A stretch of 64,000 bases of DNA from the NCBI RefSeq assembly GCF_057098645.1, contig NZ_CM169472.1. One strand, 5' to 3'. Shown in pieces: positions 38,801 to 41,800 of the stretch. The first letter of the stretch is position 1. Each line of letters begins with the position of its first letter. The position numbers are program-made.

Positions 38801-41800
38801 AGGCCAAAAATTGGCAGGAGTGGACACAGCAGGCAGCAAAACAAGCACTGACCATCAACTGGTACTATGCTGATGTGAACGGCAATATTGGTTATGTTCA
38901 TACTGGTGCTTATCCGGATCGTCAATCAGGCCATGATCCGCGATTACCCGTTCCTGGCACGGGAAAATGGGACTGGAAAGGGCTATTGCCTTTTGAAATG
39001 AACCCTAAGGTGTATAACCCCCAGTCGGGATATATTGCTAACTGGAACAATTCTCCCCAAAAAGATTATCCCGCTTCGGATCTGTTTGCCTTTTTGTGGG
39101 GTGGTGCAGATCGCGTTACGGAGATCGACCGACTGCTTGAGCAAAAGCCACGCTTAACTGCTGATCAGGCATGGGATGTTATTCGCCAAACCAGTCGTCA
39201 GGATCTTAACCTGAGGCTTTTTTTACCTACTCTGCAAGCAGCGACATCTGGTTTGACACAGAGCGATCCGCGCCGTCAGTTGGTGGATACATTAACACGT
39301 TGGGATGGCATCAATTTGCTTAATGATGATGGTAAAACCTGGCAGCAGCCAGGCTCTGCCATCCTGAACGTTTGGCTGACCAGTATGTTGAAGCGTACCG
39401 TAGTGGCTGTTGTACCTATGCCATTTGATAAGTGGTACAGCGCCAGTGGCTACGAAACAACCTAGGACGGTCCAACTGGTTCGCTGAATATAAGTGTTGG
39501 AGCAAAAATTTTGTATGAGGCGGTGCAGGGAGACAAATCACCAATCCCACAGGCGGTTGATCTGTTTGCCGGGAAATCACAGCAGGAGGTTGTGTTGGCT
39601 GCGCTGGAAGATACCTGGGAGACTCTTTCCAAACGCTATGGCAATAATGTGAGTAACTGGAAAACACCTGCAATGGCCTTAACGTTCCGGGCAAATAATT
39701 TCTTTGGCGTACCGCAGGCCGCAGCGGAAGAAGCGCGTCATCAGGCGGAGTATCAAAACCGTGGAACAGAAAACGATATGATTGTCTTCTCACCAACGAC
39801 AAGCGATCGTCCGGTGCTTGCCTGGGATGTGGTCGCACCCGGTCAGAGTGGATTTATTGCTCCCGATGGAACAGTTGATAAGCACTATGAAGATCAGCTG
39901 AAAATGTACGAAAATTTTGGTCGTAAGTCGCTCTGGTTAACGAAGCAGGATGTGGAGGCGCATAAGGAGTCGCAGGAAGTGTTGCACGTTCAGAGATAAT
40001 TAAGCCCGAAAGCCCTCATATTCAGGAGGAATATGAGGGTGATAAAGTCTCAGGTATTGTGATGTTGGAGGGCTGGTTACTTTTTGAGTTCCGCAAACGC
40101 CGCCCGAATCTCTTCCTCCGGCAACTGAATCCCGATAAACACCATCGTGCTATGCGGTTTTTCATCGCCCCACGGGCGGTCCCAGTCGGCGCTGTAGAGG
40201 CGCTGGACGCCCTGGAACAGCAGGCGGTTAGGTTCGCCGTCAATCCACAGCATCCCTTTGTAACGCAGCAGTTTATCTGCCGATTCCAGCAGCAGGTTTT
40301 CCATCACCCGGGAAACTTCGCTGATATCTACCGGGTAATCCAGTTCCACCACAATCGACGAAATATCGTTTTGTTTATCCGCGATAAAGTGGAAACGCGG
40401 TTTGGTGCTGACGACGTTCTCTTCCAGCATAAAACCGTTGGTGTTGAACAGCAGGCCCAGGTCGATGTCGCCGTGGGTGACGGTGTAGACCGGTGCACGG
40501 GCGTTGATGCGCGCCAGGCGTTCGCGCAGTTTTTCTGCTTCGCCTGCGACGTCGGTTTTGGTCAGCAGAATACGGTCGGCGTAGCCAACCTGGGACTGGG
40601 CGATGGTGAACTGATTCATCTGCTCATCGGCATGTACCGCATCCACCAGCGCAATCACGCCGTCCAGCAGGTAACGCTGGCATAAAATCTCATGGGAGAA
40701 AAAGGTCTGAATAATCGGGCCGGGATCGGCCATGCCGGTGCATTCAATGACCAGACGATCGAACTGAATATTGCCCTTATCGAGATTATCCAGCAGGTCG
40801 AGTAGTGCGTCTTCCAGCTCGTTGGAGCGCGAACAGCAGATGCAGCCGTTGGTCAGCGTTTTGATCTGCGTGGCGCGGTCGCCAATCAATTGATCATCAA
40901 CGGAGACTTCGCCGAATTCGTTTTCAATCACGGCAATCTTGTAGCCGTGTTGTTCGTTAAGAATATGGCGCAGCAGGGTGGTTTTGCCCGCGCCTAAAAA
41001 ACCGGTGAGTAGGGTAACTGCAATCGGGTTCATGCTCTCTCCATTAACAACAGCGCATACCGCCTTTACCATCGCCGCCGTAGCGCGCGTTCTGGCGTTC
41101 GCGGAAGAATTCTTCATAGCTCATGTACGGCTTGTCGGGATGGTTGGTCTTCATATGCTCGACGTAGTTGTCGTAGTCTGGAATGCCAATCAACATCTTT
41201 GCCGCCTGGCCGAGATATTTTTTTGCCTGTCCTAAGTTACCAAACATAGTTCACTCTGATAAGAACAAAGCCCCGCCGAAGCGGGGCTAAACACGGTTAG
41301 TGGTGCGAAGAGATCTTCACGCCGCCTTCCGGGATTGGAACGTACGGTGTTTCTTTGTCAGTACGTTTGTCGCTGTTACGCACCGCAAGCCACGTTTTGA
41401 AACCGTAGAAGATGATGCTGTACACCACAATCAGGAACAGAATACTCAGGCCTGCGTTGGTGTAGTTGTTCACAACGATGTGGTTCATGTTGGCAATCTG
41501 CTGCGCCGTCAGGTCAGTACCGTTAGCAATCTTCTCTTTGTACTGGCTTGCCATGTAGAAGAAGCCTTCCATCTGCGGGTTGGTGCTGAACAGTTTCAGG
41601 CCCAGCGCCCAGGTGGTGCAGATAAGCAGCCATACAGCCGGAACAACAGTTACCCAGATGTATTGGGTGCGCTTCATCTTAATCAGCACAACGGTACCCA
41701 GTACCAGCGCTACGGCTGCCAGCATCTGGTTGGAGATACCGAACAGCGGCCACAGGCTCTTAACGCCGCCCAGCGGATCGACCACGCCCTGATACAGCAG

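Follow-up and report, generated by a model that had tools for sequence, protein, structure and literature searches.

A natural amber allele of the penicillin G acylase gene at an ancestral Dcm site in an Escherichia coli sublineage near O145:H28

We describe a pac gene (penicillin G acylase) of Escherichia coli in which an amber codon stands in frame within the beta subunit. We read it as a natural loss-of-function allele that arose by a C-to-T change at a Dcm site and has been inherited clonally in a sublineage near the Shiga-toxin-producing O145:H28 strains, and we give this reading a probability of roughly 0.88. The gene lies in a stretch of 64,000 nucleotides of one chromosome (contig NZ_CM169472.1 of assembly GCF_057098645.1), which is referred to as the window and whose positions are used throughout.

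Results

An in-frame amber codon interrupts pac

Translation of positions 37459-39999 on the plus strand yields 668 sense codons, a TAG at 39463-39465, 177 further sense codons in the same frame and a terminal TAA (847 codons). This bears out the frame proposed in a preliminary description of the locus, and the residues flanking the TAG also read as they were given there. The collinear locus of RM9872 (E. coli O145, NZ_CP028379.1) is annotated as penicillin G acylase WP_022581255.1. Comparison of the window gene with PDB chains gave matches with E=0, and Pfam PF01804 was recognized on both halves of it. The parts of the gene and its two neighbors are as follows.

36943..37107, plus strand: yjiS, left neighbor of pac (from the collinear RM9872 annotation)
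37459..39999, plus strand: pac (penicillin G acylase), interrupted by the in-frame amber codon; 846 codons and the terminal stop
37459..37536, plus strand: signal peptide, codons 1-26 (the alignment of 1ai4_A, the mature alpha chain, begins at residue 27)
37537..38163, plus strand: alpha subunit, codons 27-235 (209 aa), intact (1ai4_A 1-209 corresponds to residues 27-235 of the query)
38164..38325, plus strand: spacer (linker) peptide, codons 236-289 (54 aa), intact (the gap between the alpha and beta chains)
38326..39462, plus strand: beta1-379, kept, with the catalytic Ser beta1 at codon 290 (1gk9_B 1-557 corresponds to residues 290-846 of the query)
39462..39466, plus strand: CTAGG, derived from an ancestral CCAGG (Dcm site), probably by deamination; the inner C is the mutated base 39463
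39463..39465, plus strand: amber TAG in place of CAG (Gln beta380, precursor codon 669)
39466..39999, plus strand: coding remnant for beta381-557, in frame and undecayed 3' of the stop, the same as in the intact O145:H28 alleles
39499..39999, plus strand: mechanically defined downstream ORF of 162 aa, with a GGAG (39499-39502) ahead of its in-frame TTG (39511)
40077..41033, minus strand: yjiA, convergent right neighbor of pac (from the collinear RM9872 annotation)

The pre-pro architecture of penicillin G acylase has been described (PMC2045090 and PMC3913322), including a spacer of 54 residues (PMC2045090), and homology over the full length of the window gene reproduces the order of alpha subunit, spacer and beta subunit that marks members of this family (S45 / PF01804). 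With the Gln restored, the beta subunit differs from that of the crystallized ATCC 11105 enzyme (1gk9_B) at 6 of 557 positions, as counted by hand along the alignment, so the identification of the gene as penicillin G acylase holds. The alignment over beta1-379 is gapless with substitutions at 107, 127, 321 and 362, and none affects beta1 (the Ser of the SNMW motif), A69, N241 or R263, residues whose roles as nucleophile or in oxyanion formation and binding are given in PMC3347531. As no specific PGA model was found among the NCBIfam profiles compared with the pac product, which gave only a weak PvdQ match far below the cut-off, assignment to the family rests on PDB and Pfam. A scan for promoters and terminators around pac returned nothing informative.

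The derived base is T and the lineage lies close to O145:H28

We then compared the segment 37300-40060 (2,761 bases) with complete E. coli genomes. Against RM9872 it shows a single difference, T instead of C at 39463. The 23 best complete genomes all score 5094 bits, one mismatch below a perfect match, and the position of the mismatch was checked directly in RM9872. A C occupies 39463 in RM9872, RM13514, C325 and UTME-3, which are O145:H28-like, and also in the more distant PapM-32-1; with four O145:H28-like genomes and an outgroup in agreement, the T of the window is the derived state. Since the closest complete genome has C at this position, the ancestral codon 669 was CAG (Gln), and Gln is also the residue at beta380 in the crystallized E. 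coli enzyme 1gk9_B. Thus, the single-base change from CAG to TAG that had been suspected is a transition relative to every intact orthologue examined. None of the reference acylases aligned ends at codon 669, and all solved beta chains reach about residue 557. An in-frame premature stop facing intact orthologues at the same locus is the configuration of a nonsense pseudogene. A 69-mer containing the TAG had no exact match in the 1,072 complete RefSeq E. coli genomes that carry the segment.

Most of the 23 best genomes are labeled O145:H28, O145 or O145:NM, with four labeled by strain only, and by sequence the window is E. coli chromosome closest to O145:H28 strains, which are food-borne and Shiga-toxin-producing. 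Even against the best complete genomes the window shows about 10 differences per 24 kb, indicating that the window belongs to a separate sublineage. About six changes between 27 and 51 kb are private to the window lineage, a number comparable to those of C325 and UTME-3, and two of the six disrupt genes (pac and yjiN). The sublineage carrying the TAG is not represented among RefSeq complete genomes.

Gene order in the window follows that of RM9872, running through fim, gntP, uxu, iatD, yjiJ-N, mdtM, an Rpn-family pseudogene, yjiR and yjiS to pac, and continuing 3' of pac with yjiA, yjiX, btsT, the hpa cluster and then tsr. Because no plus-strand gene lies between pac and the convergent yjiA, a polar effect of the stop on other genes is unlikely. 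In K-12, the hsd/mcr/mrr cluster occupies the interval between yjiS and yjiA. The annotation of the RM9872 region collinear with window positions 36943-41033 shows none of the hsd, mcr and mrr genes in that interval. In E. coli W, pac replaces this hsd/mcr/mrr immigration control cluster (PMC3032704).

The substitution falls on the inner C of a Dcm site

Before the change, positions 39462-39466 read CCAGG, which is a Dcm site (CCWGG); they now read CTAGG, the inner C having become T. Such a transition, C to T on the inner cytosine of CCWGG, is the sequence signature of a Dcm hotspot. Changes of this type make up only 9 of the 334 possible single-base substitutions that would create a stop in pac, or 9 of 112 when transitions alone are counted. 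In lacI, the dominant amber hotspots were GC-to-AT changes at the second C of CCAGG, and they required cytosine methylation (Coulondre et al. 1978, as summarized in PMC12606429). The T:G mismatch in CTWGG/CCWGG is acted upon by the very-short-patch repair of Vsr (PMC2715241). A species-wide count places dcm-vsr in 5,358 of 5,426 complete E. coli genomes, the listed O157:H7 genomes among them.

These observations support a scheme in which the 5-methylcytosine at the inner C of CCAGG would have deaminated spontaneously to T and escaped Vsr repair, so that codon 669 would have turned from CAG (Gln beta380) into the amber TAG; the allele would then have been passed on clonally. We regard deamination of 5-methylcytosine as the probable, well-supported cause. 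A plain replication error could also have produced the C-to-T change at 39463, as a single event cannot prove a hotspot mechanism.

The truncated precursor is expected to be inactive

The encoded product consists of the signal peptide, the alpha subunit, the spacer and beta1-379. It lacks beta380-557, i.e. 178 of the 557 beta residues, which makes exact the earlier estimate of about 180. Among the lost residues are beta G385, S386 and N388, which contact the leaving group (PMC3347531). Structurally conserved strands are affected as well. SCR14B-16B form strands B1-4, B1-5 and B1-6 of sheet B1, the sheet that is begun by the catalytic Ser in B1-1, and some 200 residues separate SCR14B from the preceding helices around beta R263 (PMC11241749). 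This distance places the SCR14B-16B strands beyond beta380, and the product is accordingly without a complete beta subunit having these C-terminal core strands. Processing into subunits requires that the precursor first fold properly, and maturation failed in mutants to which Lys substitutions had been added, for example beta R495K or beta D216K (PMC2045090).

Translation would end after 668 residues at the TAG. As the leaving-group contacts and the last three strands of B1 are missing, the truncated precursor is expected not to fold; it would not cleave itself into subunits, it would be degraded or would aggregate, and no acylase activity would be left. The locus is thus expected, from its sequence, to be a pac pseudogene or null allele rather than a gene for a functional penicillin G acylase.

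The expected null phenotype could be relieved if the amber codon were read through, either by a suppressor tRNA of the supE or supF type or by a near-cognate tRNA-Gln, restoring Gln and with it a partly functional enzyme. The 177 downstream codons are intact, in frame and undecayed, as such a reading would have it. Both supE and near-cognate decoding insert Gln, the ancestral residue. An undecayed downstream sequence is expected anyway for a mutation this young, given at most 2 substitutions in about 20 kb between carriers and the window. Strong amber suppressors are known as alleles of laboratory strains and are unusual in wild isolates. Basal readthrough would yield only a small part of the normal amount of enzyme. 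ARAGORN found no tRNA gene in the 64-kb window, which counts against a suppressor gene there, and a search for Rfam RNA elements in the 64-kb window was likewise negative. We consider readthrough an unlikely source of functional enzyme.

Loss of pac does not call for selection

The segment 37300-40060 was found by megablast in 1,074 of 5,426 complete E. coli genomes (about 20%). Since only this fraction of genomes has pac, the gene is dispensable. The preliminary description held the allele to be notable, and it appears less so for an accessory gene of this distribution struck at a textbook mutation hotspot.

We considered whether loss of the acylase was selected in the pathogen sublineage instead of drifting. 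The allele persists in a clade that has been sampled many times, and two of the six lineage-specific changes between 27 and 51 kb disrupt genes, pac and yjiN, as noted above. Both observations would fit selection. A hotspot origin requires no selection, though, and clonal hitch-hiking accounts for the persistence; moreover, there was a single mutational event, with no independent inactivation at the TAG site in 1,072 genomes. Adaptive inactivation is therefore a very unlikely explanation. A related proposal treats pac as a contingency gene whose amber allele is leaky through Gln readthrough or reversible at a rate raised by Vsr, with truncation perhaps favored in the cattle/STEC niche. Vsr repair has been reported to promote changes from CTAGG to CCAGG (PMC2715241), and we mention this proposal only as a long shot. 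The TAG allele is ordinary decay of a dispensable accessory gene at a classic hotspot.

The amber allele is inherited

Next, we asked whether the stop is present in other data. A public protein collection (NCBI, Logan, ENA) contains exact copies of the 668-aa product and of the 162-aa downstream ORF, and each of the two is encoded on 24 contigs that were read from assemblies of these three sources. All four samples that were fetched (GCA_029357705.1, ERZ28749823, SRR27225942 and ERR8531222) have the TAG. Across the stop, all four show ...ACCTAGGAC... and contain ...GAAACAACCTAGGACGGTCCA.... Elsewhere the carriers are close to the window without being copies of one another, at most 2 substitutions separating them from it in about 20 kb. 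One contig (L013) differs from the window at 39096 and 45999, a second (L015) at 45999, and a third (L014) at 30279 and in its flanks, and the fourth (L016) shows no difference from it over 10 kb. The window's yjiN frameshift, caused by an additional C, is shared by L013, L014 and L016 and serves as a second lineage marker. Because the TAG samples differ elsewhere yet share the yjiN marker, the TAG is inherited and not an error. It is reproducible in independent data and is shared by diverged genomes, as a genuine pseudogene should be.

The alternative is that the gene is really intact and that the TAG entered the source record through an artificial edit or an error of sequencing or assembly. 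The TAG is absent from all 1,072 complete RefSeq genomes with the segment, and the 23 best complete genomes are one base from the window by score (verified directly in RM9872), a situation that an error or edit would also create. Calls of the identical truncated protein (668 aa) on the 24 contigs of the three repositories, and the differences among the four TAG samples at 39096, 45999 and 30279, which show that they are not mutual copies, speak against it, as does the location of 39463 outside any homopolymer. An error or edit confined to the source record is hardly tenable. The exact-protein look-ups in independent NCBI, ENA and Logan assemblies ruled out a sequencing error or a planted mutation. 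The TAG is an inherited natural allele, neither a sequencing error nor a laboratory construct, and the earlier wording of a natural or laboratory null allele therefore stands for its natural half, in view of public assemblies from a wild lineage, and falls for its laboratory half. A literature search that included O145:H28 pseudogenes found no published description of this pac allele, although it is already in public assemblies.

Gene callers report the 162-aa downstream ORF as a separate 'Penicil_amidase' fragment, and an SD-like GGAG (39499-39502) stands 8 nt upstream of its in-frame TTG (39511), but it is barely conceivable that this C-terminal fragment assembles non-covalently with the 668-aa product before export to form a split enzyme, as it lacks beta380-395 and hence the G385, S386 and N388 contacts, has no signal peptide, belongs to a mechanical ORF whose GGAG and TTG are unchanged in intact alleles and so were not selected for re-initiation, and would have to serve an enzyme whose maturation is fragile even to single added Lys substitutions.

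Other variation in the window

Several other genes of the window vary between strains. The yjiN gene (DUF445; 31147..32428, minus strand) has 7 C at 31515-31521, compared with 6 in RM9872, RM13514, C325, UTME-3 and PapM-32-1. As a result of this +1 C frameshift it is called as 316 aa, in contrast to the 1,281-bp (426-codon) gene annotated in complete genomes. The frameshifted yjiN is a second pseudogene marking the TAG sublineage. The annotations of RM9872, RM13514, C325 and UTME-3 also give the gene for an Rpn-family recombination-promoting nuclease (34168-35112, plus strand) as a pseudogene that contains an internal stop. PapM-32-1 has an intact copy, indicating that this pseudogene is older and common to the O145:H28-like genomes examined.

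A pentapeptide-repeat gene (about 26407..28527, minus strand) contains a 48-nt tandem array at 26471-26640 with a 24-nt sub-period and 3.5 copies, and the array of the window is one unit longer than that of RM9872. Near 28148, in-frame indels of 6 and 12 nt vary between strains, and the C325 copy of the gene has an internal stop. The product is a length-variable repeat protein. In the hpaA-hpaB intergenic region, the window alone has A at 45999, and G is found in all five compared genomes as well as in the TAG carriers L013 and L015. Lying upstream of hpaB, this change might touch regulation of hpaBC.

Two of the compared sequences have features of their own. The L014 contig (ERZ28749823 contig_5611, 1-20489) is rich in indels while bearing the same TAG and yjiN frameshift. 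In it, btsT is joined directly to tsr and the hpa cluster is absent, and its diverged flanks correspond to window coordinates 34.4-35.5 kb and beyond 41.7 kb. Either several E. coli strains were joined into a chimera during metagenome assembly, or the background is recombinant. In UTME-3 (L003 and L011), six additional nucleotides, TATGGC, lengthen pac in frame within the part for the alpha subunit, at the equivalent of window position 37620, and hpaA has an internal stop. The UTME-3 variants show that other alleles of the pac-hpa neighborhood circulate in the O145:H28-like group.

Discussion

The closest known system is the E. coli penicillin G acylase of ATCC 11105 and strain W (1PNK and 1GK9, precursor 1E3A; MEROPS S45, PF01804), which has the same 846-codon pre-pro architecture. 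This is the best-studied penicillin G acylase, and the window gene is closely orthologous to it. The two loci also agree in their setting, pac of the window lying between yjiS and yjiA and that of strain W standing in place of hsd/mcr/mrr. Two differences set the window locus apart: 1) the window product stops after beta379, with an amber codon for the Gln beta380 of the ATCC 11105 enzyme; and 2) the host is of an O145:H28-like wild lineage and not of the industrial W lineage.

As regards the mutation itself, the lacI amber hotspots (Coulondre, Miller, Farabaugh and Gilbert 1978) offer the nearest parallel, with the same GC-to-AT change, CCAGG to CTAGG, turning CAG into TAG. Those were laboratory-selected mutants of a K-12 reporter for which the involvement of methylation was demonstrated, whereas the pac change is one natural event in a wild lineage. 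Lineage-specific accessory pseudogenes of pathogenic E. coli likewise result from single-nucleotide changes, are clonal and have intact orthologues in sister lineages; besides pac, the window has two more of them, yjiN and the Rpn-family gene. Compared with these, the pac TAG has nothing distinctive except the fame of the gene.

Gene callers report the allele as two pieces of a 'penicillin amidase', one of 668 and one of 162 aa; its annotation should read pseudogene. Together, the TAG polymorphism and the yjiN frameshift can mark a clade, an O145:H28-like sublineage that the complete RefSeq genomes do not include. There is no industrial bearing, since the strains used for production go back to E. 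coli W / ATCC 11105, in which the gene is intact, and beyond bookkeeping the importance of the allele is small. What it presents to the biology of the species is the classic CCAGG-to-CTAGG amber hotspot of lacI, repeated in a natural isolate.
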